From positions 1 through 38,827 of the forward strand of contig CAZPIK010000003.1 in assembly GCA_964586185.1 (NCBI GenBank): a stretch of DNA of 38,827 nucleotides, in the 5' to 3' direction. The notes below the pieces were generated by a model. The model did not search any database. It saw only the letters and a program-made list of their open reading frames with translations, and had not been told where the DNA came from. This document shows positions 2,980 to 37,356 of the stretch, piece by piece. Each line of letters begins with the position of its first letter. Position 1 is the first letter of the stretch. This DNA is from an uncultured Candidatus Sumerlaeota bacterium. Its GTDB lineage: Bacteria > Sumerlaeota > Sumerlaeia > MVZB01 > JAJFLK01. Both the position numbers and the translations under genes were made by a program.

Positions 2980-4311
2980 TCAGAAAAGTTCCATGATGGG
3001 TTTGCCCTTGTCGGCAACGGTGAAAGGACGACCCGATGGCGAGTAAAGGATTTTGTCGAGCGGGATGCCCTGCGCTTGCGCGATCGTGGCGTTGAAATCG
3101 GGAACGCCAACTTCGTTCTCGATGACGTCTTCTCCGCGTTCATCGGTCTTGCCCCAAACTTGTCCGCCTTTGATACCGCCGCCCGCCAGCAGACACGAGA
3201 ATGCTTTGGGGTGATGGTTGCGGCCTTCGGTTTCGTTGATCTTGGGTGAACGACCAAATTCCGTCGCGACCACGACGAGAGTTGAATCGAGTAGGCCGCT
3301 GGATTTGAGATCATCGAGCAATGCGGAGAGAGCGCGATCAAGCGAACCCGCAAGGTCCTCGATCCGCTCGAAGTTGTCCACGTGCGTGTCCCAGCCGCCC
3401 GAATTGACCTCGACGAACCGAACGCCGTGCTCGACGAGACGCCGCGCGAGCAAGCAGCCCATGCCGAAATCGGTTTCCCTGGCGTTGGCCTTTGCATTCG
3501 CGCCGCCTTCGCCGCGTGATTGTCGAAGATACCGCGCGCGGGTTTCGTCCGATTCCTGACTGAGATCAAACGCCGCCAAGTCCTGGCTCTTCATGAGGCT
3601 CAAGGCTTCCTTATAGAGATCGTTGTAGGCTCGGACTTCTTGAGTGTCGTATTCCTTGTGGAACTCGCGGTCGAATTGATCCACGAGCGTGAGGCGTTTC
3701 TGCAGCTGCTCTTCGGTAACGCCCGCGGGTAATTTGCTGTTCTGCAATCCCGCTTCGGGGTCGCCGATAGGAACCGGCGCGCAGCTTGCCTCGAAAAATC
3801 CCGCGCCCGGATGACGACTCCCGCCGGAGACGAGCACATTGGCGGGCATCGTCGGATTGATCCGACCTTTCATTTTGGTCGTCCATGCGCCAAGCGATGG
3901 ATGAACGATGGTTCCGCGTTTGGTGTATCCCGTATGCATAAAATGAACGCCGCGCTCGTGATCGCCTTGCGTTGACTTGAGCGAACGAACGACCGCGACA
4001 TGATTCATCCGCTTCGCCATTTCCGGCAGATGCTGGCTGATACGGATGCCATCCACGTTGGTATTTATAACCTGAGTGGGACCTTGCTCTTCGGTTCCAG
4101 GTTTGGGATCAAAGGTATCGAGGTGGCTCATACCGCCGGAGAGATAAAGATAAATGACCTGCTTGGCTTTTCCCTCGGCAGGAGCGGCATTGCCGAAGAC
4201 CTGATTCGCGCCGATGAGCGGTCCCGCCGTGACGCCGAGGAACGAAGTCGCCGCCCACGACATAAATGAGCGGCGCGTGATTTCGTCCTGATGATTGAGA
4301 AATGATTTCAT
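2980..4311 (-). CDS. DUF1501 domain protein (sulfatase/phosphatase-fold, Tat-exported)
   Basis: 443 aa. Twin-arginine signal TRRSFMSWAATSFLGVTA. GGMSHLDTFDPKP and NSGGWDTH motifs are typical of DUF1501. Lies 21 nt downstream of the DUF1549/DUF1553 gene. Confidence 0.85.
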   Translation of the reverse strand: MKSFLNHQDEITRRSFMSWAATSFLGVTAGPLIGANQVFGNAAPAEGKAKQVIYLYLSGGMSHLDTFDPKPGTEEQGPTQVINTNVDGIRISQHLPEMAKRMNHVAVVRSLKSTQGDHERGVHFMHTGYTKRGTIVHPSLGAWTTKMKGRINPTMPANVLVSGGSRHPGAGFFEASCAPVPIGDPEAGLQNSKLPAGVTEEQLQKRLTLVDQFDREFHKEYDTQEVRAYNDLYKEALSLMKSQDLAAFDLSQESDETRARYLRQSRGEGGANAKANARETDFGMGCLLARRLVEHGVRFVEVNSGGWDTHVDNFERIEDLAGSLDRALSALLDDLKSSGLLDSTLVVVATEFGRSPKINETEGRNHHPKAFSCLLAGGGIKGGQVWGKTDERGEDVIENEVGVPDFNATIAQAQGIPLDKILYSPSGRPFTVADKGKPIMELF

Positions 4312-9731: not shown

Positions 9732-9777
9732 GTAGGTCGGCTCTTCGAGCCGACGTCGGGTCGGAGACCCGACCTAC
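9732..9777. repeat. Twin-hairpin REP-like element
   Basis: GTCGGCTC-TTC-GAGCCGAC (9736-9754) is followed directly by GTCGGGTC-GGA-GACCCGAC (9755-9773), enclosed by GTAGG...CCTAC. Located between the stop at 9815 and the LamG gene start at 9665. Confidence 0.85.
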
Positions 9778-10372: not shown

Positions 10373-10744
10373 TTAACGCAATCCACCCAATCGGAGTGAG
10401 TAATTGCGCATGGGTTTGAGAGTGCCGCTGGTGGGATCCACGGCCATGCCGAGTGCTTCAAGCGCTTCGACGCCGAGTAAAGGTTCGTCACAATCCATGA
10501 TGAGTGCGGGGGTGGCCACGGATCGATCCCCGATTTGGACTCGAACGAGCGCAATATCAGCCTCGATTTTCTGACCATTCGCCAAGGTCACTTTTTCCTT
10601 CGTCGGAAAGGGAGCAAGCCCCAGCCGCTTGGCCAATTCGGGAGAAACCAATGAATAGGTCGCGCCAGTATCTACAAGTAGCGAAACTTTTTCGGAGTTC
10701 ACGCCGCTGAGTGTCGTTTCTTGCATGACATGCCCCATCGCCAT
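10373..10744 (-). CDS. Retropepsin-like (clan AA) aspartic protease, single domain
   Basis: 123 aa from ATG 10744 (or 10738). LLVDTGATYSLV active-site motif, a conserved-looking EPLLGVEALEALG tail, GGGAG RBS at 10748-10752. The ORF-track start at 10786 lacks an RBS. Confidence 0.75.
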   Translation of the reverse strand: MAMGHVMQETTLSGVNSEKVSLLVDTGATYSLVSPELAKRLGLAPFPTKEKVTLANGQKIEADIALVRVQIGDRSVATPALIMDCDEPLLGVEALEALGMAVDPTSGTLKPMRNYSLRLGGLR

Positions 10745-10931
10745 TTTCTCCCGGTAACTAAATCCATCTCTCTCTTCATTATCCATATTTCTTGTTTAAC
10801 GGCGAGTGATAATGCCGATTTTGGCTCGATTGCTGAAATTTAAGAATGGAGCTTCGCCCGCGCATCGAGCAAAATCATGTGCTTCGAGAGCGCTCTGCGC
10901 TGAATTGACAACCGCGAGGTAAATACGTCCG

Positions 10932-14735: not shown

Positions 14736-14762
14736 GGTAAGACTTATGCCAAGTTTGAATTC

Positions 14763-14831
14763 TAGCCGCGAAAAGGCGCAAGAGACGCAAAAGTAAAATT
14801 GTTTTGTGCCTTCTGCGCTTTTTCGCGGCTA
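14763..14831. repeat. Long imperfect hairpin repeat, family 1, copy A
   Basis: 30-nt arms TAGCCGCGAAAAGGCGCAAGAGACGCAAAA / TTTTGTGCCTTCTGCGCTTTTTCGCGGCTA with a 9-nt loop. 25/30 Watson-Crick pairs, and 3 of the 5 mismatches are G-U. Starts 27 nt after the lipoprotein stop. Confidence 0.85.
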
Positions 14832-14846
14832 AAATCTTGAAGGATT

Positions 14847-17724: not shown

Positions 17725-18525
17725 ATGTACCTCGTTTACCTTGATGAATCCGGCAACTCAGGACTTAATCTTGCTGATCCAGCACAGCCCATCTTCGTAC
17801 TTGCCGCTCTTGTCGTTCCCGAGGAGATTTGGATACCCTTGGAAAACGATCTCATGGGCGCCGTGGAAAAGTTTTTCCCCTCGCCGCGCCCTGAAAAGTT
17901 TGAGATCCATGCAAAGGCTATTCGAAATGGCGAAAACTATTTCCGCCGCTTCAAGATCGCCCACCGCCTTGAGTTTCAGAGCACATGCCTTCAACTTGCG
18001 CAAAAGCATAAGATCCGACTCATATATCGCGCAATTTCTAAGAAGCGGTTTCTTCGCTGGATCGAAATCACATTTGGTACTGGTGTCATTATTAACCCAC
18101 ATGTCGCCGCGTTTCCCCTTGTCGCACGGGTTGTTGACGAATACCTAAAGTCTTTGTCCGGCGCTCCGCTTGGGATATTCATCGCGGACGAAAACCGTGA
18201 GATCATTGGCGATGTGGAAAAGGCCATCCGACTGCTCCGTTTTGCGGAAGGAAGCCTCAAACTGGAGCGAATCATCGAAAAGGGTTTCTTCATCCAATCC
18301 GAAAAAAGTCTGGTTCTTCAATTGTGCGATTTGTGCGCCTATAGCGCCAAAAAGAAGGAGGAAGCCGAAGCCGGAATCCCGTTAAAAGAAATTGATCGCG
18401 CGGGGATCGAGTTGATCGAACCGATTATTCATCATGGCAAAGAATCTTTAGAGGATACGCTCGGTTGGTTGATCCAGCAGCATCAAAAAAAGGAGCGGCC
18501 AGGGGACAAGCCCGGGTCGGTATGA
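17725..18525 (+). CDS. DUF3800 domain protein
   Basis: 266 aa. MYLVYLDESGNSG, then a C-terminal LQLCDLCAY motif, both typical of DUF3800. GC is 44-49% in two hand-counted 120-nt samples, against 67% in the last 120 nt of miaB. Confidence 0.8.
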   Translation: MYLVYLDESGNSGLNLADPAQPIFVLAALVVPEEIWIPLENDLMGAVEKFFPSPRPEKFEIHAKAIRNGENYFRRFKIAHRLEFQSTCLQLAQKHKIRLIYRAISKKRFLRWIEITFGTGVIINPHVAAFPLVARVVDEYLKSLSGAPLGIFIADENREIIGDVEKAIRLLRFAEGSLKLERIIEKGFFIQSEKSLVLQLCDLCAYSAKKKEEAEAGIPLKEIDRAGIELIEPIIHHGKESLEDTLGWLIQQHQKKERPGDKPGSV

Positions 18526-24064: not shown

Positions 24065-24087
24065 ATGTGCCCAAGGGAAGAAAACAA

Positions 24088-24266
24088 CGCAGAGACGCAA
24101 AGGCGCAGAGTCGCAAAGAGGATCACATCAATCGAAATGTTAAAGTAGGATGATGATTGTAATGCTGGTTCGGAAGATGAATATGAAAATAAGAGACCGT
24201 AATTACCAAATGAACCTACCGCACGCCAAAGACCTCCTTGCGTCTTTGCGCCTCTGCGTCGTTGCG
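24088..24266. repeat. Octamer-array inverted-repeat element (family 2, copy 1)
   Basis: Left arm CGCAGAGA CGCAAAGG CGCAGAGT CGCAAAGA (24088-24119). Right arm is the inverted array TCCTTGCG TCTTTGCG CCTCTGCG TCGTTGCG (24235-24266). The ~110-nt spacer is AT-rich. Outer flanks are GAAAACAA / TTAAATTC. Confidence 0.9.
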
Positions 24267-24464
24267 TTAAATTCTTCCGCGCTGCAGCGCATTCAACGTC
24301 ACACCCTCCGTCGAGGTCACACCCGAATCGAAGCAACCTTTGCGATCGTCTTTCTCGCGCTCGCGGCGGTGGGCATGTGGTTGGCCTTTGGTCACGAAAT
24401 CGCCGAGACCACGCGCGATATGATGGAACACGCGCGGACATGGCTACCGACGAAAGGCAAATAA
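24150..24464 (+). CDS. Questionable small membrane protein ORF upstream of tag
   Basis: 104-aa ORF starting in the AT-rich spacer and reading through the right repeat arm. Only the last ~60 codons look coding (GC-rich third positions, TM helix IEATFAIVFLALAAVGMWLAF). TAA lies 1 nt before the tag ATG. Confidence 0.25.
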   Translation: MMIVMLVRKMNMKIRDRNYQMNLPHAKDLLASLRLCVVALNSSALQRIQRHTLRRGHTRIEATFAIVFLALAAVGMWLAFGHEIAETTRDMMEHARTWLPTKGK

Positions 24465-29329: not shown

Positions 29330-31168
29330 GTGATGTCAAACTCTTCAGCCCCCATGCCAGCGATACCGAACCGCGAACACACCTTCGCGCCAGCGGTCAT
29401 CATCTTCGCCGTCACGTTTCTGTTTCTTTCGCCAGTGTTGAACGCGGTTTTCATCTGGGATGATGCGCTCTACATCATCCAACCGATCCCGTTGAAATCG
29501 TGGGGCGGCATTTATGACATCTGGACTCAACCGTACTCGACGCCCAGCCCTTATCCGCTGGTCATGTCGGCGTTCTGGGCGATGTATCGCGTGTGGGGCG
29601 AGCATCCGGTCGGATACCATGCTGTTGGACTTCTCCTCCATGCCGTCAACGCCATTTTGCTTTGGCGGCTATTGTTTCGATTGAACATCTCGGGCGCGCT
29701 CTTGGCCTCGTTGCTCTTTGCCATCCATCCGATTCAAGTCGAATCGGTGGCTCATGTGAGCGAACTGAAAAACACGCTGTCGGGTTTTTTCTTCTTTCTG
29801 GCGATTCACGCGTGGCTGCGATTTGAAGCGAACGATACGCGGAACAACTACCTCGCGCTTGTGGGCTTGTTTACGGCGTCCATGCTGAGCAAGACGGTAA
29901 CGTGCGTGCTCCCCCCGTTGCTCGGAACGCTTATACTTTGGCGGCGACCCGAACGAATGACGCGGCGTTTGCTCCAGACGATTCCGCTCTATGCGCTTGC
30001 GCTCGCGCTCGCGGGACTGACGATCTGGTGGGAAAAAACGCGCACGGGCGCGTCGAGCGATTACGTCCGACATTCGATCTCGGAACGAATCTGGATCGCC
30101 GCGCGCGCTCTGGAGTTCTACCTCGGAAAATTGGCTTGGCCATTTCATCTCCAGACGACATATCCAAAATGGAATTTGAATTTGTTCGAGGGTTCGGTCT
30201 CGCTGATCGGACTCACGCTGGTTTTGTGTGGATTGGTTTTTGCGATGCGTAATCGCGCGGCGTCGCGATCACTGACGGTTGCCCTCGCGTCGTTTGCCAT
30301 CCTGATTTTTCCCGCGCTTGGGTTCTTCGATTTTTCCACGATGTATTACTCTTACGCCGCCGACCACTACGCTTATCTGTCGTCGGCGGTTCCGTTCGCA
30401 GTGGTAGCGGCCTTAGTCTCGACGGGATTGCGTCATTCCGCGCGGATAAGACAGGCAGGAATCCCCGCGCTCGCAATATTCGCTCTAGGAATGCTTTCGG
30501 CCGAAGAGGCATGGAGATACCGCGACGCGGCACTGTTCTGGGAGAGCAACGCGAAGCAGAATCCAAAGTCGCCGCACGCGCTTTACGATTGGGGACTCGC
30601 CCTCATGATGAAGAACGAAAATGAGGCCGGGGCAGAGAAATTACGCGAGGCGGTGAAGTGCGATCCCGATTACGTGGGCGCGCACGTCATGCTGGCTCGC
30701 GCGGCTCTCGAGCGGAACGACAAGGCGGGCGCGAAGAAACATTACGCGCTGGCGGTGGCGGTTAAGGCGGGGAATGAGAAACTGCGGAACATGCAGGCGC
30801 TCGCGCATAATAATTTGGCAACGCTGCTTGCCGAAGAAGGGAAGCACGAGCAAGCGATAAAAAATTATGAGGCGGCGCTTAAGATACTGCCGCGATATCC
30901 ACAGGTGCATGTTTCGATGGCGTTGCTTTATGGAAAGCAGGGGGATTTTCGGGAGGCCGCGCGTCATTGCCGAAGGGCCGCGAATCTGGATCCCCTGAAC
31001 GCCGATGCGCAGTTTTGGCTAGGACGCGCGGAAATGCGGATGGGGCATCCGAAGCTTGCGAGGAATGCTTTTGCGCGCGCGCTGGAGATCAATCCGAATT
31101 ACCCCAACGCGCGAGAGGAATTGGAAAAGGCCGAGGCCGCGATGAGCACGGACACAAAACTGCCATGA
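29330..31168 (+). CDS. Polytopic membrane protein with C-terminal TPR repeats (TMTC/PMT-like GT-C candidate)
   Basis: 612 aa. About 400 aa with many TM helices (WDDALYI ... YHAVGLLLHAVNAILLWRL), then TPR repeats (KSPHALYDWGLALMMKNE ..., PNYPNAREELEKA). Confidence 0.75.
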   Translation: MMSNSSAPMPAIPNREHTFAPAVIIFAVTFLFLSPVLNAVFIWDDALYIIQPIPLKSWGGIYDIWTQPYSTPSPYPLVMSAFWAMYRVWGEHPVGYHAVGLLLHAVNAILLWRLLFRLNISGALLASLLFAIHPIQVESVAHVSELKNTLSGFFFFLAIHAWLRFEANDTRNNYLALVGLFTASMLSKTVTCVLPPLLGTLILWRRPERMTRRLLQTIPLYALALALAGLTIWWEKTRTGASSDYVRHSISERIWIAARALEFYLGKLAWPFHLQTTYPKWNLNLFEGSVSLIGLTLVLCGLVFAMRNRAASRSLTVALASFAILIFPALGFFDFSTMYYSYAADHYAYLSSAVPFAVVAALVSTGLRHSARIRQAGIPALAIFALGMLSAEEAWRYRDAALFWESNAKQNPKSPHALYDWGLALMMKNENEAGAEKLREAVKCDPDYVGAHVMLARAALERNDKAGAKKHYALAVAVKAGNEKLRNMQALAHNNLATLLAEEGKHEQAIKNYEAALKILPRYPQVHVSMALLYGKQGDFREAARHCRRAANLDPLNADAQFWLGRAEMRMGHPKLARNAFARALEINPNYPNAREELEKAEAAMSTDTKLP

Positions 31169-31185
31169 GAAAGAAAAGAAATTAT

Positions 31186-31294
31186 CGCAGAGACGCAAAG
31201 TCGCAGAGGCGCAATGAAGTTTACTTCCCTTTGTGCAGTGCTCCCATCGGATACAAGCAACCTCCTTACGCGTTTGCGCCTCTGCGCCTCTGCG
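31186..31294. repeat. Octamer-array inverted-repeat element (family 2, copy 2)
   Basis: Left arm CGCAGAGA CGCAAAGT CGCAGAGG CGCAATGA (31186-31217). Right arm TCCTTACG CGTTTGCG CCTCTGCG CCTCTGCG (31263-31294). Spacer is 41 nt. Flanks are GAAATTAT / TTAACTTG. Confidence 0.9.
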
Positions 31295-31313
31295 TTAACT
31301 TGTTCATGCAACA

Positions 31314-33221
31314 ATGGGCCGAAGGTTTACTGTGAAATCCACGCCGATCTCGACCGAATCGGAACAAATCCCGGACGCTCTTCCCTCCGGAATGCAAGCC
31401 GAAGATATTGATCGTCTGCCCGCTTTGCCCGGCATTTACATCATGAAAGACGCGGCGGGGAAGGCGATCTATATCGGCAAAGCGGCGGATTTGCGCTCGC
31501 GCGTGCGAAGTTATTTCACCCGCGCGGGCGATGCGCGATTCAATGTCCGGTTTCTCATGCGTTACGTCCGTTCGGTCGAAACGATTATTACCTCAACCGA
31601 AACCGAGGCGTTTCTTCTCGAAGACACGCTCATCAAAAAAGAGCAGCCTAAATATAATATCCGCCTACGCGACGATAAGACGTATGTGAGCGTGCGGTTC
31701 AATATGGATCACGAGTGGCCGCGGGCGGTCGTCATGCGGCGGCGACATGAACGAAAGGATGGAGGTTTATATCTCGGTCCCTTTTCGTCGGCGCATTCGA
31801 CCCGCGCGACGCTTCGGATGCTTCAGAAGGTTTTTCCCATTCGCTCGTGTCCTGATTCCGTTTTGCGCAATCGAACTCGCCCGTGCCTGCTCCATCCCAT
31901 CGGAAGATGCGCCGCGCCGTGCGTGAAACCGGTCGAGAAAAAAGATTATGACGAATGGATTCAGGGAACGATTCTCGTGCTGAAAGGGAAGACCGAGGAG
32001 GTTCTCGCGAAACTGCGCGGAGAGATGGCGAAGTGTTCGGAGCGGATGGAATTCGAGCGCGCGGCGGCGATCCGCGACCGCATCGCCGCGATTGAAAGCA
32101 CGGGCGAATCGCAGCGAGTGCACAAACATGAAGGAGGCGACCGCGATGTCGTTGTTTGCGAACGCTCGGGCGGTCGGCTCGGCTTCGCGCTTTTCTCCTA
32201 CCGCAATGGAATTTTGGTTCGGAGTCGTCCTTACATTTTCAAGGATTTGGGCCGCGAACTGGGTGAGGTCATGGCGGAATTCCTTGCGCGATACTACGGC
32301 AACGAAACGCCGCCTGCTGAAATATTATTGCATCCGGAGCCGAGCGATTCCGCGGCGCTCGCGCAGTGGCTCGGAGTAAGGCGCGAAGGGACATGCCATT
32401 TGATCTCGCCTCAGCGCGGCGAAAAAGTTCGGCTGATCGAGATCGCGCGGGAGAATTGCACACGATGGATCGAGCAGCACGTTGGCGGGCAAACCACGCG
32501 CGAGGAGATTGGTCGCGAGCTGATGGAAAAGTTCCAGCTCGATGAAGCTCCCGACGCGATCGAGTGTTACGACATCTCGACGCTTCAGGGCTTCGCAACG
32601 GTCGGATCGCAGGTGGCGTTCCGCGAGGGACAGCCCGACAAGGCGCGTTACCGGCGCTATCGGATCAAAACGCTTGATGGACAAGACGACTTCGGCGCGT
32701 TGCGCGAAATGCTGACGCGCCGATTCCGCAAAGTCGTGGAGGGAACTGATCCTCCGCCTGATCTCGTGATGATTGACGGCGGCAAGGGACAACTCAACGT
32801 CGCCTGCGCGGTCTTCGAGGAATTGGGCGTCACGGGCGTTGGTCTTGTCTCCATCGCGAAAAGCCGAGTGAAACACCGGGGCGACAAAACCGAACGAACG
32901 GAAGAAAGGTTTTTTCTGCCGGGTCGCAAGAACCCGGTCACGTTCGCGGCGAATTCACCAACCCTCTACCTTCTTCAACAAGTTCGCGACGAGGCGCATC
33001 GGTTTGGGATTACGTATCACCGCGACCTGCGCAAGAAACGTAATTTACGTTCGGCGCTCGAAGATTTGCCCGGCGTCGGCAAAATCCGCGCGGCGACGTT
33101 GCTTCGGGCGTTCGGCTCCATGCGCGCGCTCCGCGAGGCGACGGAAGAACAAATCGCGGCGACGAAGGGAATACCCGCGCACGTTGCGACGACCGTACAC
33201 AAATTTCTCCACGAGGCGTAG
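31314..33221 (+). CDS. uvrC: Excinuclease ABC subunit C
   Basis: 635 aa. GIY-YIG domain (PGIYIMKDAAGKAIYIGKAADLRSRVRSYF), UVR domain, RNase H-like endonuclease domain and C-terminal (HhH)2. Confidence 0.95.
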   Translation: MGRRFTVKSTPISTESEQIPDALPSGMQAEDIDRLPALPGIYIMKDAAGKAIYIGKAADLRSRVRSYFTRAGDARFNVRFLMRYVRSVETIITSTETEAFLLEDTLIKKEQPKYNIRLRDDKTYVSVRFNMDHEWPRAVVMRRRHERKDGGLYLGPFSSAHSTRATLRMLQKVFPIRSCPDSVLRNRTRPCLLHPIGRCAAPCVKPVEKKDYDEWIQGTILVLKGKTEEVLAKLRGEMAKCSERMEFERAAAIRDRIAAIESTGESQRVHKHEGGDRDVVVCERSGGRLGFALFSYRNGILVRSRPYIFKDLGRELGEVMAEFLARYYGNETPPAEILLHPEPSDSAALAQWLGVRREGTCHLISPQRGEKVRLIEIARENCTRWIEQHVGGQTTREEIGRELMEKFQLDEAPDAIECYDISTLQGFATVGSQVAFREGQPDKARYRRYRIKTLDGQDDFGALREMLTRRFRKVVEGTDPPPDLVMIDGGKGQLNVACAVFEELGVTGVGLVSIAKSRVKHRGDKTERTEERFFLPGRKNPVTFAANSPTLYLLQQVRDEAHRFGITYHRDLRKKRNLRSALEDLPGVGKIRAATLLRAFGSMRALREATEEQIAATKGIPAHVATTVHKFLHEA

Positions 33222-33278: not shown

Positions 33279-33566
33279 ATGAAACCGTCGCTTGACATTG
33301 CTGCTGACGTGCGACAGGCCGCCGAAGTCTTGCGACACGAGGGCGCGCGCGAAGTTTATCTTTTTGGCTCGACCGCACGGGGAACATCCCGAGTCGGATC
33401 GGACGTTGATCTTGCGGTCACTGGACTCCCACCCGCGCGGTTTTTCGAGGCTATGGCACGGGCTGCCGAGCAACTTAACGGACCGCTCGATCTTGTGGAC
33501 CTCGACGAAGACACACCGTTTACGCGCTACCTTAAGGAAGAAAACGAACTCGTCCATGTCGCGTAA
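33279..33566 (+). CDS. Minimal nucleotidyltransferase (MNT/MntA-like antitoxin)
   Basis: 95 aa. YLFGSTARGTSRVGSDVDLAV = the GSxxRG...DxD polymerase-beta-type NTase motif. Confidence 0.8.
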   Translation: MKPSLDIAADVRQAAEVLRHEGAREVYLFGSTARGTSRVGSDVDLAVTGLPPARFFEAMARAAEQLNGPLDLVDLDEDTPFTRYLKEENELVHVA

Positions 33567-34035
33567 GCTCGCTCTTCAGATACGCGTGGATATCGAGCAG
33601 CTTTGCACACTCATGCACCGTCACCGTGGCCTGATCGAGGAATGCAAAGTTCGGACTCCCACTGAAGTTGAAATTGATGCTTTGGCATCGCAACTTCATT
33701 CTTTCTATTCGGACATTGAGAATGTCTTCAAGCGGATTTGCATCGAATTGGATGAGGAAGCGCCCACAGGTGAATTTTGGCACGCGCGGCTTCTGGACGT
33801 GATGGTTCATCCAGCCCCGAAGCGCCCCGCCGTCGTAACCGAAGATTTGAAAACATTACTTCGTCCCTACTTGGAATTCCGCCACGTTTTTCGTCACGCC
33901 TACACCTTTGAACTGAAGTGGGACAAGATGGCCCCGCTTGTTCTTGGAGTTCTGGAAGTGTTCGATACGTTTGAGCGTGAAATACAAATCTTCCTCACAT
34001 TTTTGGACTCACGGAATCTGCCATCGCAATCGTAG
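33556..34035 (+). CDS. HEPN-type (HepT-like) putative RNase toxin
   Basis: 159 aa from ATG 33556, overlapping the MNT gene by 11 nt. YLEFRHVFRHAY contains an Rx4H HEPN motif. The long N-terminal extension in the ORF track lies inside the MNT gene. Confidence 0.6.
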   Translation: MSRKLALQIRVDIEQLCTLMHRHRGLIEECKVRTPTEVEIDALASQLHSFYSDIENVFKRICIELDEEAPTGEFWHARLLDVMVHPAPKRPAVVTEDLKTLLRPYLEFRHVFRHAYTFELKWDKMAPLVLGVLEVFDTFEREIQIFLTFLDSRNLPSQS

Positions 34036-35496
34036 CATTAGGGCAAAGAGTGCAAGGAGCGTTCCGAGAATCGCGGCTTGCGAGCGGGCGATGGGGTTTC
34101 CGGGTTTCCAAGCTCCGGCGAGAATGAGCGGCATGAGCGGAACCCAAATTCTTCCGACCTCGCCGCGTACGGAACCGGAAAGAGTTAGCAGACCTAGACC
34201 CAACAGGACTCCGCGAGAGAACTCCGATTGACTCGATGTGATAAACATGACGATCAGCGGCACGCCGCAGAGCAAAATAAAATCGAGGGGATTGAAGAGC
34301 AGCCACGTTAGATACGAGCGGTCGGCAGTGATCAGGTGATGATTGGAGAGAGCCGTGCGAAAAATCGCGAGTGGGTTGGCCGGAGATAAAATGAAAGGCG
34401 CAAGAAAGCTTAGCGCGGCGATGGCGGCTGCGATTCCCAATCGGCGGATGGCAAGCGGCGAATCATTGGAATTGTGCGAGGACATGAAAGCGACGATGAC
34501 CGCGATGGCAAAGAACGCAATCGCTCCATAGGTGAGGTTGGTGGCTACGCCTGCGATAACGCCTGCCAAGACTGCGGCGAAAATTCCGGTTGTGCGATGG
34601 TGGCGGGGATCAAGCGCGACCATCAAAAGCGCGGCCAAGCCAGCAATGGGCAACGCCAATGCCGAGTCGAGCTGCGAGGTCGTGACGGCCGATCCGGGGA
34701 TGAGCGGCCATATCGCGGCGATTCGCGCGGAGGAGACTGGATCGTGGCCGAGAATCTGCGCCAGCCGCGCAATCGGCCAACACGCGAGAAGGTTCAGCAG
34801 CATGAGCAAAATCGGCGCAAGCAACGCAGCGGCAAGTTCGGAGCGCGAGAGGTGCGGCTGAAACTCCGATTCGGAAATCCCCGCGCGTGAAGCCGCTCCG
34901 GCCAACGCGTCGGTCAACGGTGGTAGCATTTCGCAAAGGTCCATTGTCAGCGCGTAAAACAAAACGGCACCGGGAGGATGCGTCACCGCGTGGAGGTAAC
35001 GGTATAGATCGGTTCCGCGCGACCAATTGTTGTAATTCGCGTAGAGTCCGCGCGGCGACTCCGCCCAATCCATCCGCGCGACGGAATAGTAGGAGGTGAA
35101 TGAACTATCCGCCGTTCGCTGGACCAGTGAGGCCGCGACGCTGCCCTTGCCCACCGGCTTCGTGAGTCCCCAATGGAATCCGAACCCGAAGAGAATAGCC
35201 GTGAGTAGTAACGCCCGCGCCGCGAGTTTTGGACGGCGTTTCGCCCACTCGCCGCCGGAGACTGCGAGTATTACGATCAAGAAAAACGCGCACGGAATAG
35301 CGGTTACGCCCAACGACGAGATTGGTTTGGGCTGAAACGTCCATCGCCAGTTTCCCCACGTCGGCCCGCGCCAAATAGATGGAACATCGAGCGCAACAGC
35401 AACGAGCAGCACCAAGGAAACAATAATGCCGATTAGAAATAGAGGCTCAGTCGTTACGAAGGCCGCGTTGGAATTACGCTTCAATTTTCTCCGCAT
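34009..35496 (-). CDS. Polytopic integral membrane protein, unknown function
   Basis: 495 aa from ATG 35496 (MRRKLKRNSNAAFV...), with 10 or more hydrophobic helices. The ORF-track start at 35661 would read through a repeat arm (LCAFASLRLCV). The 3' end overlaps the convergent HEPN gene by 27 nt. Confidence 0.7.
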   Translation of the reverse strand: MRRKLKRNSNAAFVTTEPLFLIGIIVSLVLLVAVALDVPSIWRGPTWGNWRWTFQPKPISSLGVTAIPCAFFLIVILAVSGGEWAKRRPKLAARALLLTAILFGFGFHWGLTKPVGKGSVAASLVQRTADSSFTSYYSVARMDWAESPRGLYANYNNWSRGTDLYRYLHAVTHPPGAVLFYALTMDLCEMLPPLTDALAGAASRAGISESEFQPHLSRSELAAALLAPILLMLLNLLACWPIARLAQILGHDPVSSARIAAIWPLIPGSAVTTSQLDSALALPIAGLAALLMVALDPRHHRTTGIFAAVLAGVIAGVATNLTYGAIAFFAIAVIVAFMSSHNSNDSPLAIRRLGIAAAIAALSFLAPFILSPANPLAIFRTALSNHHLITADRSYLTWLLFNPLDFILLCGVPLIVMFITSSQSEFSRGVLLGLGLLTLSGSVRGEVGRIWVPLMPLILAGAWKPGNPIARSQAAILGTLLALFALMLRLRWQIP

Positions 35497-35522
35497 CACC
35501 GCTCCTGCGTTCAAGAAATCAA

Positions 35523-35723
35523 CGCAAAGGCGCAAAGACGCAAAGGCGCAAAGACGTTTCTTGAGTGCCTTCGGGCGACTCCAATCTTGGCGCGGTTTGA
35601 GGGCGTCAATCATTGTTCGCGCAGCTTGAAATAAATTGTTGTCGTTTTCATCAGTCCCCATTTTATCTAACCGTCTAACTTGCCTTGGTCATCCTTGCGC
35701 CTCTGCGTCTTTGCGCCTTTGCG
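35523..35723. repeat. Octamer-array inverted-repeat element (family 2, copy 3)
   Basis: Left arm CGCAAAGG CGCAAAGA CGCAAAGG CGCAAAGA (35523-35554). Right arm TCCTTGCG CCTCTGCG TCTTTGCG CCTTTGCG (35692-35723). Spacer is ~133 nt. Flanks are GAAATCAA / TTTACTTC. Sits in a divergent intergenic region. Confidence 0.9.
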
Positions 35724-35833
35724 TTTACTTCTTCCTCCGCAAAAGCCTAGCCTTGGCCCGCGATTTGGGCGAACATATTCCCGCATTTTCAATCGCGCGG
35801 CAGACGCGCACGGAAGCGAAATATTCATTCACC

Positions 35834-37060: not shown

Positions 37061-37120
37061 GAGTACGCAGATACTGAACGGGTGAATAAGTTACCTTGAT
37101 TCTTCATCAAACTTTCTTCA

Positions 37121-37295
37121 GCGCCGAAGGCGCGCGTCATTTCCAGCCTGGGGCAACGCCCCAGGAAAATGGTCACCCCAAAAGTCTTGAGGGCTGTAAG
37201 CCCGCTCCAATTGGGTCGGGCTTACAGCCCTTGAATTCTGTGCCAGCTTTCCTAGGGCGTTGCCCTAGGCTACTATAGATTCGCGCCATTGGCGC
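37121..37295. repeat. Five-hairpin palindromic REP-like element
   Basis: Hairpins: GCGCC-GAA-GGCGC (37121-37133), CCTGGGGC-AAC-GCCCCAGG (37147-37165), a central 15-bp perfect stem AGGGCTGTAAGCCCG/CGGGCTTACAGCCCT (37190-37231), CCTAGGGC-GTT-GCCCTAGG (37251-37269), GCGCC-ATT-GGCGC (37283-37295). The two halves are inverted copies of one another. Confidence 0.9.
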
Positions 37296-37356
37296 TCGGC
37301 ATGTGTGATTGCGTAAGCGATGGGAAATGGGCTTGATAAAGGATTAGGGTGACTTT

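Follow-up and report, generated by a model that had tools for sequence, protein, structure and literature searches.

The window, i.e., the whole 38.8-kb stretch of DNA that was analysed, contains three intergenic loci with housekeeping genes as their neighbours, and no integrase was found in it. As read directly from the sequence, each locus consists of four CGCARAGN octamers that face four inverted octamers. A two-unit octamer pattern gave 17 matches in the window, all of them within the three loci, compared with 0.06 expected from shuffled sequences, which bears out the shared architecture that was proposed in a preliminary description of this DNA. The left arm of copy 1 (24088-24119, + strand) is composed of the units CGCAGAGA, CGCAAAGG, CGCAGAGT and CGCAAAGA, in this order, while its right arm (24235-24266, - strand) reads, as the reverse complement, CGCAACGA, CGCAGAGG, CGCAAAGA and CGCAAGGA, with the latter being the inner unit on the minus strand, which is followed by GG. 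These arms enclose a 115-nt spacer (24120-24234) and are bordered by two mutually complementary outer flanks, GGAAGAAAACAA (24076-24087) and TTAAATTCTTCC (24267-24278). Copy 2 (31174-31306) has flanks at 31174-31185 and 31295-31306, arms at 31186-31217 and 31263-31294 and a 45-nt spacer (31218-31262); the fourth unit of its left arm, CGCAATGA, and two units of its right arm, CGCAAACG and CGTAAGGA, are imperfect. In copy 3 (35511-35735), almost perfect arms (35523-35554 and 35692-35723) lie between flanks at 35511-35522 and 35724-35735 and enclose a 137-nt spacer (35555-35691). With arms of 32 nt, the spacers measure 115, 45 and 137 nt, which corrects the initial values of 110, 41 and 133 nt.

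Copy 2 fills nearly all of the gap between a PMT_2/TPR gene (stop at 31168) and uvrC (ATG at 31314). Copy 3 is placed in the divergent gap between a membrane-protein gene (34009-35496, - strand), the start of which is supported by a GGAG Shine-Dalgarno sequence, and an apgM-like gene that begins at about 35815 (+ strand). The elements had been called strictly intergenic, which holds when the most plausible gene starts are used but not for mechanically predicted ORFs, which cross the arms. One predicted ORF (24150-24464) begins in the spacer of copy 1, crosses the right arm and stops 2 nt before the tag start. The expectation that the arms seed spurious ORFs was also correct, e.g., ...RRDAKAQSRK... 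and ...TLRLCVSALF.... The window elements look like passengers; an effect on local expression is possible because copy 2 precedes uvrC and copy 3 lies between divergent promoters. A promoter scan of the window revealed no promoter-like sites in any of the three spacers.

All six half-elements of the window have about 45 nt in common, i.e., GGAAGAAWTTAA and four octamers. As the preliminary description had stated, the outer flanks are similar at all six ends and complementary between the two ends of an element (AAGAAWTTAA before CGC on the left and TTAAWTTCTT after GCG on the right, which is the TTAA type), the three spacers are unrelated, with no alignment between them, and the spacer of copy 1 is AT-rich (39% G+C compared with 55% for the whole window). 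The arms were also correctly thought to be able to pair as a long stem; in the predicted folds they pair with z-scores of -6.5, -3.1 and -6.6 for copies 1, 2 and 3, respectively. The motif AAGGAGG is found, as was reported for two copies, on the minus strand at the inner end of the right arm of copies 1 and 2, while copy 3 has AAGGATG. A degenerate fourth relative (14759-14835) is located between two + strand genes and consists of a 34-nt inverted repeat that is 82% complementary, with a 9-nt loop and the units CGCGAAAAGG, CGCAAGAGA and CGCAAAA. The three window loci are genuine gene-less copies of a hairpin-forming repeat.

Beyond the window, a three-unit pattern had at least 120 matches in the genome collection and at least 120 in the viral collection, which confirmed that the loci belong to a genuine family with numerous further copies in other genomes and mostly paired arms. 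The carriers among the matches listed belong to more than 10 phyla, plus phage contigs. The octamer foldback repeat is spread over many bacterial phyla and phage contigs and is not lineage-specific, which is a much wider range than the PVC and candidate phyla in which relatives had been anticipated. The organism from which the window derives is Sumerlaeota-like. The number of exactly four units, which had been regarded as fixed, holds inside the window and is confined to it; in the family as a whole, three units were the most common, although the search pattern itself required at least three. In the usual order, among the matches listed, a purine-rich arm is followed by a spacer of 11-185 nt and a complementary arm: 50 strict and 33 degenerate pairs at the genome loci had the purine arm first compared with six to eight of the opposite polarity, a family-wide bias of about 10:1. 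Single modules that have the flank but no partner were also found (about 55 in the genome loci among the matches listed). Directly outside the arrays, the outer flank reads TYTCR or TTTAA/TTCAA, with the TYTCR type in most genomes; among the matches listed, positions -5 to -2 are T (66%), Y (83%), T (71%) and C (59%) or A (32%). This conservation is alike in paired and unpaired arms as well as in genome and viral loci. The inverted repeat continues 5-10 nt past the arrays, and the partner arms agree at 83% of the R positions (50% expected) and 57% of the N positions (36% expected), with 87.6% of arm positions in Watson-Crick pairs. The period of 8 nt is kept while the core varies (CGCARAG, CGCCAAG, CACGAAG and CGCAGAA). 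In places, the arrays reach 12-35 units, and some elements are nested within others, such as at locus L268, where CACGGAGN arms surround a CACGAAGN element. The octamers CACGARG and reversed GARACGC had been chosen as negative controls, but their 16 and 37 stretches in the viral collection share the architecture and flanks of the family, which makes them relatives and rules out their use as a null. A search of the PLSDB plasmids with an idealised element gave a single match, in Nostoc, probably because of low-complexity masking. In the literature, 15-mers of the repeat matched no paper and the 7-mer matches were primers.

The analysis of the neighbouring ORFs linked the arms to one protein family. 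GxxExxY (TIGR04256 / PF13366), the gene for which encodes 125 aa and is bracketed by arms in many other genomes, ranked first among the Pfam families of the ORFs near arms, with 5 of 148 ORFs, which came from five phyla. Conversely, when 80 GxxExxY loci were collected solely on the basis of protein similarity, 53 of them had arms within 250 nt of the gene (upstream in 48 and downstream in 44 of the 80). The rate per GxxExxY flank was 55-60%, compared with 2.5% of the control windows (10/408), and the distance between an arm and the start or stop codon was typically 1-40 nt. A motif-blind detector of repeats with a period of 7-9 found arrays in 37 of the 80 loci compared with 7 of 288 controls, and nearly all of those at the GxxExxY loci were of the CGCAAAG type. 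The commonest layout was arm-gene-arm (18 loci), with outer flanks as in the gene-less elements and arm-to-arm distances of up to about 500 nt when the gene is inside. Among the ORFs bounded by arms, GxxExxY accounted for 36 of 87 and was the sole recurrent cargo. About 27 of the 80 loci had no arms, with some of these contigs being incomplete. The 38.8-kb window contains no GxxExxY gene, and tblastn at E up to 10 found no remnants of one in its spacers, that of copy 1 included. An AlphaFold2 model of the protein (pLDDT 79.5) had Cas4 SSO0001 as its best structural match in the PDB (E = 5e-4, TM-score 0.54). Profile comparisons, including the defence-system libraries, gave weak Cas4-like matches only, and a PDB sequence search with the GxxExxY profile gave no match. 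The model, supported by the weak Cas4 profile matches, suggests that GxxExxY adopts a minimal Cas4/RecB-like PD-(D/E)XK nuclease fold. A homologue search returned at least 8000 candidates, and in a survey of PD-(D/E)XK proteins, the entry for PF13366 reads "Unknown... multiple transfers" (PMC3424549).

Because the same arms bracket a GxxExxY gene in other genomes, the octamer foldbacks probably constitute a mobile-element family, one that is undescribed in the literature that was searched. On balance, we favour the explanation that the three loci and the decayed fourth are ORF-less foldback copies, the ORF-bearing form being parental and the gene-less forms MITE- or REPIN-like derivatives of it. 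Each end of such an element is a module of about 35-45 nt, a short outer flank followed by three to four tandem CGCARAGN octamers, and two facing modules enable either DNA strand to fold into a long hairpin with a variable loop. The arm-GxxExxY-arm form would represent the autonomous or parental cassette, while the gene-less forms may have arisen by internal deletions, persisting and perhaps spreading in intergenic DNA. The elements are presumed to move, with the GxxExxY nuclease as their putative mover or maintainer; the protein would probably act as an oligomer that reads the 8-nt register or the folded arms. The window copies would rely on a GxxExxY gene elsewhere in the same genome and may be largely neutral passengers. 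The simplest account of the AAGGAGG on the minus strand is that it is the vestige of a ribosome-binding site, since the purine arm adjoins the GxxExxY start codon in the ORF-bearing relatives. A broader reading, which we put forward tentatively, is that the foldbacks and GxxExxY form an unrecognised class of bacterial mobile elements in which a Cas4-like nuclease, and not a DDE, HUH, serine or tyrosine recombinase, recognises the octamer ends or their hairpin or cruciform and drives both the cassettes and the far commoner ORF-less derivatives. As conjectured here, such a class could extend over Acidobacteriota, Bacteroidota, Cyanobacteria, Chloroflexota, Planctomycetota, Verrucomicrobiota, Proteobacteria, Sumerlaeota and the phages of these phyla. 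Alternatively, GxxExxY might not be the mover but a gene that is frequently carried in hairpin loops, or an enzyme that targets such loops.

Several loci behaved as members of a repeat family. At locus L024, four copies within 4 kb are alike over the whole element of about 140 nt, spacer included (81% column identity), in contrast to the diverging DNA on either side, and the two copies at L021 likewise include the spacer in their similarity. A 129-nt block distinguishes the orthologous loci L324 and L349 from each other and corresponds to one extra arm pair, the purine arm of which retains the GxxExxY leader TTCGGAGA; this difference could have arisen by a deletion (recombination between the arms) and not an insertion. 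A MITE with structured terminal inverted repeats, one of the readings that were offered at the outset, is the best fit to the whole-element families, the arm-pair indel and the ORF-bearing versions elsewhere. The unrelated spacers of the three window copies, unlike those of classical MITE copies, count against the favoured explanation. Among the loci that were compared, no transposition event or empty site was demonstrated. The flanking direct repeats were no longer than those in the shuffled-partner controls, i.e., no target-site duplication was detected, and TTAA, being self-complementary, is ambiguous as one. No elements were found in roughly 59 kb of sequence from three relatives that were among the closest available (UvrC identity of about 68%); the uvrC synteny of the nearest relatives (RDD-uvrC) differs from that of the window. 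Two further candidates were rejected. The genes of L024 are ordinary ABC-transporter and TPR genes, not those of an integron-like cassette array, and the long arm-to-arm intervals are not transposase-bearing autonomous elements, as only GxxExxY recurs in them and the other cargo ORFs are miscellaneous or spurious.

An alternative that we consider unlikely is that the elements function at the level of host RNA, the arms forming a long dsRNA stem in read-through transcripts that would serve as an RNase III site, an insulator or a 3'-end stabiliser while the loop (the spacer or the GxxExxY mRNA) is cut out or protected. In this respect, the elements would be comparable with the intervening sequences of 23S rRNA or with REP elements that lie in mRNA. 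The stems of 30-40 bp with strongly negative z-scores agree with such a role, as does the fact that 54 of the 68 paired elements, among the matches listed, follow a long ORF that ends no more than 200 nt upstream of them (median about 25 nt). Moreover, the 5' flanks of the window elements are rich in A and the 3' flanks in T, the purine arm offers a Shine-Dalgarno-like sequence immediately 5' of the GxxExxY start, and RNase III excision of ORF-bearing intervening sequences provides a precedent (PMC4990558). However, the G·U pairs showed no strand bias (sense 42 compared with antisense 43), which was also the case for G·U versus A·C, and the folding energies of the two strands were equal (21 against 20). 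The shares of elements in co-directional, convergent and divergent gaps, judged against an expectation that is our own estimate, resembled those of intergenic regions generally, and copy 3 lies in a divergent gap. At L024, the order of T-run, hairpin and A-run is the reverse of a terminator. The elements were absent from the 22 terminator-like sites that a scan of the window returned, and with loops of 45-137 nt, not 3-8, an intrinsic (Rho-independent) terminator was rejected. Membership in an Rfam RNA family was also rejected, as there was no match at the gathering score and only chance-level matches at E up to 10. These results, i.e., the lack of an Rfam match, of any difference between the strands in wobble pairing or folding energy and of terminator geometry, do not sustain the idea of a structured-RNA family that was raised initially. 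No rRNA was found in about 380 loci, and an intervening sequence of 23S rRNA (helix 25 or 45) was dismissed, with no rRNA in the window or any fetched element or GxxExxY locus.

It is improbable that the octamer arrays are simply duplex-DNA sites for a repeat-reading protein (a nucleoid or global regulator or a ribbon-helix-helix protein), with the inverted pair as a composite operator. MetJ, a ribbon-helix-helix protein, binds cooperatively to tandem 8-bp boxes. A strict 8-nt period with three to four units, which is kept despite changes in the octamer sequence, would suit such a protein, and so would the partnerless single modules with a conserved flank, as well as the position of copy 3 and some other elements in promoter regions. 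The same architecture was read in this way, as IHF/HU sites, by the authors of the Geobacter metallireducens study (PMC2700814). On the other hand, the partner arms co-vary and their complementarity extends into the non-conserved outer and inner flanks, which would be superfluous for pure duplex binding and argues against it. The spacing of the arrays is continuous from 11 to 185 nt, reaching about 500 nt with a gene inside, and no DNA-binding protein recurs beside the arms except GxxExxY. We know of no cross-phylum regulator with one fixed site. If the binding protein were GxxExxY, this alternative would overlap with the explanation favoured above. Lastly, the very remote idea that the loci arose independently, by ordinary microsatellite-like slippage or as inverted repeats formed by chance, to which the tandem octamers of other sequence from the two control patterns and the arrays of 12-35 units might point, is effectively refuted by the 0.06 window matches expected by chance, the family architecture and flanks of the control stretches, which make them relatives and not noise, the conserved outer flank, the polarity of about 10:1, the restricted unit number, the co-varying arms and the association with one protein family. 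A Csp-binding motif (GTCTTTG), a YC spacing like that of Rho rut sites, telomerase-like addition at the ends and the resolution of cruciforms by an Hjc-like enzyme were also considered but not retained.

The foldback elements share features with several known systems. The preliminary description had called the family undescribed-looking, which remains true of this octamer family but not of its architecture, since with other octamers it was catalogued in 2009 in G. metallireducens as putative global-regulator sites. Beyond the REP/REPIN literature, these class 1-3 "global regulator binding sites" of Aklujkar et al. (2009, PMC2700814, supplementary figures S3-S5) were the only published precedent in the literature that was searched. 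As in our elements, each Geobacter site has 3-5 tandem repeats of 7-9 nt, and the sites form opposite-strand pairs at a variable distance in intergenic DNA, with tens of pairs per genome (PMC2700814). The octamers differ (GTTGCTYN, TCTCCGTS[Y] and MTYCTGA), although the class 2 octamer, TCTCCGTS[Y], is similar in its reverse complement to the nested outer arms at L268. The Geobacter sites come from one genome, were interpreted as IHF/HU sites and had no reported link with GxxExxY (PMC2700814). In many class 1 pairs, an IS110 or IS481 element has inserted at a constant distance, and no such insertion was seen in the present elements.

REPs are targets of IS110-family insertion sequences. Like REP/BIME/REPIN elements, which are associated with RAYT transposases (PMC3116915; PMC3733652), the foldbacks are short, abundant, intergenic, hairpin-forming inverted doublets with a linker, and they form superfamilies across several phyla; the arm-GxxExxY-arm layout resembles a REPtron, in which the repeats bracket one small protein gene. 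However, the difference from ordinary REP hairpins that was noted initially was confirmed: a REP unit is an imperfect palindrome of 20-40 bp with a stem of 5-13 bp (PMC3733652), whereas a single arm here is a non-palindromic direct array of octamers, and its outer flank, T-Y-T-C-R or TTAA, has neither the GTAG nor the CGTC tag. Moreover, RAYT is a Y1 HUH transposase while the arm-associated GxxExxY has the predicted PD-(D/E)XK fold; the REPIN-type doublet hairpin is present, but Y1_Tnp was not one of the top families in the 296 neighbouring ORFs, where GxxExxY was found instead. A further difference is that GxxExxY genes are apparently multi-copy. The elements also resemble bacterial MITEs in their size of 110-225 bp (the window copies measure 133-225 nt overall), in having terminal inverted repeats of about 45 bp but no ORF and in being intergenic, with whole-element families in some genomes and an ORF-bearing counterpart with the same ends. 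They differ from MITEs in that no target-site duplication was detected, the interiors of the window copies are dissimilar (the spacers at L024 and L021 are shared) and the counterpart GxxExxY is not a known transposase.

In the foldback (FB) transposons of Drosophila, the terminal inverted repeats consist of short tandem sub-repeats, the middle is variable or absent and a snap-back hairpin can form; these are eukaryotic elements of kilobase scale with sub-repeats that measure 10-31 bp, and their mobility depends on transposases of the P or MuDR type. Ends of short tandem sub-repeats, a variable middle and a snap-back hairpin are common to the present elements and to FB transposons and their relatives, e.g., Galileo (PMC3573991), with no evolutionary relationship between them. 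The S23p intervening sequence in the 23S rRNA of Coxiella burnetii, which has a small ORF (PMC4990558), is similarly a selfish stem-loop; it is a few hundred nt long, may or may not have a loop ORF of about 120 aa and has a stem that leads to removal or tolerance by the host. It differs in lying inside rRNA helices, being cut by RNase III and encoding a four-helix bundle. An integron attC site was rejected, as GTTRRRY fits some right ends only (by eye; the GTTAAAT of copy 1 fits, GTTAACT and GTTTACT do not) and the window has no integrase. Cyanobacterial STRR are short tandem intergenic repeats that are common to distant lineages. Both the STRR and the TAACTGA heptamer arrays of Beggiatoaceae (PMC4679880) are, like the present repeats, short, tandem, intergenic and found across distant lineages, but they are direct only, have no obligate inverted partner and use other motifs.

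If the proposed relationship is true, GxxExxY (PF13366), a very large family of unknown function, would gain a concrete, testable substrate, i.e., the octamer arms, and there would be an explanation for a repeat that litters the intergenic DNA of many environmental phyla. In that case, annotation pipelines would be able to mask this repeat, which seeds spurious proteins (...RRDAKAQRR... and ...SLRLCV...). With a foldback element that is associated with a nuclease, the REP/RAYT paradigm would come to include another enzyme fold, and hairpin repeats that are domesticated with one small gene, or that parasitise it, would appear to be a more general pattern. Such an element might also provide sequence-programmable DNA- or RNA-binding modules.

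Direct reading of the sequence bore out the layout that the preliminary description had claimed for the three intergenic loci (copies 1, 2 and 3 at 24088-24266, 31186-31294 and 35523-35723), namely four CGCARAGN octamers on the left facing four inverse octamers on the right, and gave spacers of 115, 45 and 137 nt, respectively. When one mismatch was allowed, a two-unit pattern was found at 17 sites in the window, all 17 within the three loci, against a chance expectation of 0.06 in dinucleotide shuffles. The proposed stem was recovered on folding, with the arms paired in all three predicted folds (z-scores of -6.5, -3.1 and -6.6 for copies 1, 2 and 3). An alignment of the six half-elements revealed a common end of approximately 45 nt that consists of GGAAGAAWTTAA followed by four octamers, of which the innermost tends toward CGCAAGGA(GG), and the three spacers could not be aligned with one another. 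A decayed fourth hairpin built of related units lies at 14759-14835. The neighbours are a GcvT/YgfZ-like gene and tag for copy 1, a PMT_2/TPR protein gene and uvrC for copy 2, and a membrane protein gene and an apgM-like gene for copy 3; the genes in the window neighbourhood are those of an ordinary chromosome, and no transposase or integrase was found there. UvrC homologues placed the organism near Candidatus Sumerlaeota, the nearest relative being only 68% identical. A 104-aa ORF (24150-24464, +) begins in the spacer of copy 1, crosses its right arm (...LLASLRLCVVAL...), leads on into an N-terminal segment that is hydrophobic and TadE-like (RRGHTRIEATFAIVFLALAAV), and terminates 2 nt ahead of the tag start codon. 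Pfam gave no match for it; were the ORF genuine, copy 1 would have a right arm that is coding or part of a 5' leader.

Several other features of the window were recorded. At 9732-9777, two short palindromes abut (GTAGGTCGGCTCTTCGAGCCGAC / GTCGGGTCGGAGACCCGACCTAC), with GTAG at the beginning and CTAC at the end; they resemble a GTAG-tagged REP doublet, which is a repeat type distinct from the octamer elements. Between the apgM-like and RmlD-like genes (37120-37296), outer arms of 49 nt (78% complementary) surround a 21+21 nt perfect-type palindrome (AGGGCTGTAAGCCCGC...) in a compound region that is unrelated to the octamer arms. Directly downstream of uvrC, an ORF (33292-34035, +) has a HepT-like_2 domain (a HEPN/MNT-type toxin-antitoxin toxin); nothing matched its N-terminal approximately 125 aa, and a partner gene was not found. 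A retropepsin-like aspartyl protease ORF (gag-asp_proteas / Asp_protease_2; 10373-10786, -) and a DUF3800 ORF (17725-18525, +) lie among housekeeping genes, neither of them linked to the octamer elements.

The search for further copies was successful well beyond this genome. A search for three exact units across 185,579 species-representative genomes returned at least 120 matches compared with about two by chance (a rough estimate), and the same scan of the viral collection IMG/VR also gave at least 120, all of these abundances being lower bounds. Among the genome matches listed, the carriers included Flavobacterium, Pyrinomonadaceae and other Acidobacteriota, Chloroflexota, Planctomycetota, Verrucomicrobiota, Kiritimatiellota, Victivallales, Nostocales, Sorangium, Geomonas, Sphingomonas, and Gamma- and Betaproteobacteria; in the IMG/VR loci, the ORFs adjoining the arms were genuine phage genes. 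REP superfamilies of the GTAG and CGTC types, which cross phyla, are a precedent for such a broad distribution (PMC3733652). In the genome loci, the arms formed 50 strict pairs with the purine-rich arm first, 33 purine-first pairs with a degenerate partner and 6-8 pairs of opposite polarity, and about 55 were unpaired; because an inverted pair reads identically on either strand, the 5' arm is the purine-rich one in both readings. Arms there mostly have 3-4 octamers, and the gaps between them range continuously from 11 to 185 nt. Immediately outside the array, a conserved flank, T-Y-T-C-R (TCTCA or TCTCG) or TTTAA/TTCAA, accompanies paired and unpaired arms in genome and viral loci alike, the window copies having the TTTAA/TTCAA type. 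Arm length can grow far past 3-4 units, as in a giant foldback (L248, about 2318-2700) in which approximately 35 tandem units of CGCAGAAA, CGAAGAAA and CGAAGTAA are followed by a 29-nt loop and the inverse array. In two IMG/VR contigs from sister samples (L157, 6830-6967; L200, 1-80), uninterrupted runs of at least 10-17 GGCGCAGA units reach the contig ends, which reflects either assembly breaks in long arrays or true terminal repeats. At another locus (L061, 1366-1521), five three-unit arms in one orientation recur every 33 bp, and the arm there is a portion of a longer tandem repeat.

The elements behave as a repeat family. In a Pyrinomonadales MAG (L024), four copies within 4 kb share their whole length of approximately 140 nt at 81% identity, including the 83-nt spacer; they have TTAA at their bounds, are surrounded by divergent DNA and occupy successive gaps among ordinary ABC-transporter and TPR genes. 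Two copies with a common spacer were also found on an alphaproteobacterial contig, and elements were observed nested within elements. At L268 (about 2140-2295), an CACGAAGN foldback is nested within outer CACGGAGN arms, whose reverse-complemented units, TCTCCGTG, match the class 2 motif TCTCCGTS[Y] of Geobacter metallireducens. The octamers CACGARG and reversed GARACGC, which were meant as controls in the viral collection, occurred in 37 and 16 stretches, respectively, and on inspection these had family-like architecture and flanks (e.g., ttcacCACGAAGGCACGAAGGCACGAAG...CTTCGTGGCTTCGTGTCTTCGTGgttaa); conservation of period and layout therefore extends over a group of related purine-rich octamers. 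Around uvrC, approximately 59 kb of sequence from three of the closest relatives available for the window organism contained no arms, which is compatible with patchy acquisition, albeit on a small sample. Neither target-site duplication above control nor a clean empty site was found.

Pairing between the arms is maintained. At the variable R position, the two arms of a pair match in 83% of the units compared with 50% for shuffled partners, and at the N position in 57% compared with 36%; Watson-Crick pairs account for 87.6% of arm positions, and complementarity extends 5-10 nt, at times approximately 20 nt, past the arrays into copy-specific sequence. Strand preference, in turn, is absent. Would-be G·U mismatches are balanced between the top and bottom strands (64 vs 70) and between sense and antisense relative to the adjacent gene (42 vs 43), and folding energy did not differ between sense and antisense (21 vs 20). 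The elements occupy co-directional, convergent and divergent gaps much as intergenic regions generally do, the baseline being a rough estimate. A terminator scan found no terminator geometry in the elements, the flank order in L024 (T-run, hairpin, A-run) being that of a terminator reversed, and no Rfam family matched. The reading as a structured RNA acting on one strand therefore gains no support. Host-level RNA hairpins that serve in processing or stabilisation are, in our view, an unlikely explanation, one that the symmetry between strands and the lack of a positional signature make less probable; the data agree with a DNA-level hairpin or cruciform, or with one arm having been copied from its partner. 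Arrays that grade among CTTTGTA, CTTTGCG and CTTTGTG units were seen at L173 (5983-6077) and L073 (about 3430-3620). In the latter, GTGAAAAG/GTGTAAAG units stand opposite a CTTTGCG array, with which they could pair only by G·U wobble, and hence only as one-strand RNA, an exception to the general symmetry.

A Pfam scan of 148 ORFs within 400 nt of arms in the genome loci ranked PDDEXK_3 (PF13366) first; its five members came from as many phyla, all five matching TIGR04256 'GxxExxY protein' (E ~1e-38 to 1e-45). Arms abut the GxxExxY ORF on either side in L063, and the gene lies between hairpins in L001, L021 and L025. In the reverse test, 80 metagenomic loci were collected by protein similarity to those five and a sixth GxxExxY ORF (L043), with no DNA pattern used. 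Motif-blind tandem arrays of period 7-9 within 160 nt of the gene ends, nearly all of the CGCAAAG/CTTTGCG type, were present in 37/80 loci compared with 7/288 control windows. At least two units of the generalised octamer occurred in the upstream flank of 48 of the 80 loci and the downstream flank of 44 (10/408 control windows in each case), and in either flank of 53. The most frequent layout (18 loci) was purine arm, gene, pyrimidine arm, with TYTCR outer flanks and 1-40 nt between each arm and the start or stop codon (e.g., atttctCGCAAAGACGCAGAGACGCAAAGaaaaaaaatt[ATG...TAA]aaaaagCTTAGCGCCTTTGCGTCTTTGCGagaaaat). Gene calls in the fetched loci were crude ORF heuristics. GxxExxY was the sole recurrent arm-bounded ORF (36/87). 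At several loci, its ribosome-binding site is provided by the end of the purine arm; the Shine-Dalgarno-like AAGGAGG noted at the inner ends of window right arms is indeed present and can thus be read simply as the vestige of a lost cargo gene. Arms are gained or lost between relatives: in the orthologous loci L324 and L349 (81% identity), a 129-nt block adds one arm pair, and its purine arm retains TTCGGAGA, the leader found before GxxExxY in the other locus, as would be expected of an internally deleted derivative. In both, a CheY-like receiver-domain gene beside GxxExxY (L324, 1894-2387; L349, 2023-2514) is also bracketed by octamer arms, so ordinary genes may come to lie between arms. Neither a GxxExxY gene nor a remnant was found within the window contig.

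The GxxExxY family is huge, with at least 8000 candidates in a homologue search and approximately 80% identical members in Bacteroidota and Victivallaceae alike; a PD-(D/E)XK survey listed it as 'Unknown... multiple transfers' (PMC3424549). Its profile had no sequence match in the PDB. The structure nearest to an AlphaFold2 model (mean pLDDT 79.5, pTM 0.75) was Sulfolobus Cas4 SSO0001 (E = 5e-4, TM-score 0.54, 25% identity), with alkaline and lambda exonucleases next in rank, in agreement with weak Cas4 profile matches; the protein is therefore predicted to be a minimal Cas4/RecB-type nuclease core. Proteins of the GxxExxY and four-helix-bundle types may be found in rRNA intervening sequences; no rRNA was present in any locus examined.

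Full-text literature searches for the element sequences found nothing, but paired sites in Geobacter metallireducens are the same kind of object: 24 pairs of four tandem GTTGCTYN units, 21 of three TCTCCGTS[Y] units and eight of five MTYCTGA units, on opposite strands at variable distance (PMC2700814). Binding by global regulators that had not been identified, with IHF/HU as a possibility, was proposed for them in that work, and IS110 and IS481 insertions are frequent at a fixed distance from the sites (PMC2700814); no later work on these sites was found in the literature searched. That the elements are duplex binding-site arrays read by a repeat-recognising protein, as was also suggested for the window, seems improbable, since pairing that reaches into variable flanks is left unexplained; if the protein is GxxExxY, this idea merges with the mobile-element reading. 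Plain slippage or chance as the origin is excluded.

On balance, we lean slightly toward regarding the window loci as ORF-less members of a mobile or formerly mobile foldback-type family, in which members with an ORF have GxxExxY enclosed by the same ends. Of the earlier readings, the MITE-like one fits best: spacer-sharing copies elsewhere, the arm-pair indel and the ORF-bearing relatives favour it, whereas no target-site duplication rose above control and the window spacers are unalike. Under the foldback-family reading, the elements would be mobile, the GxxExxY nuclease may act on the arms, and the window copies would depend on GxxExxY encoded at another place in the same genome.
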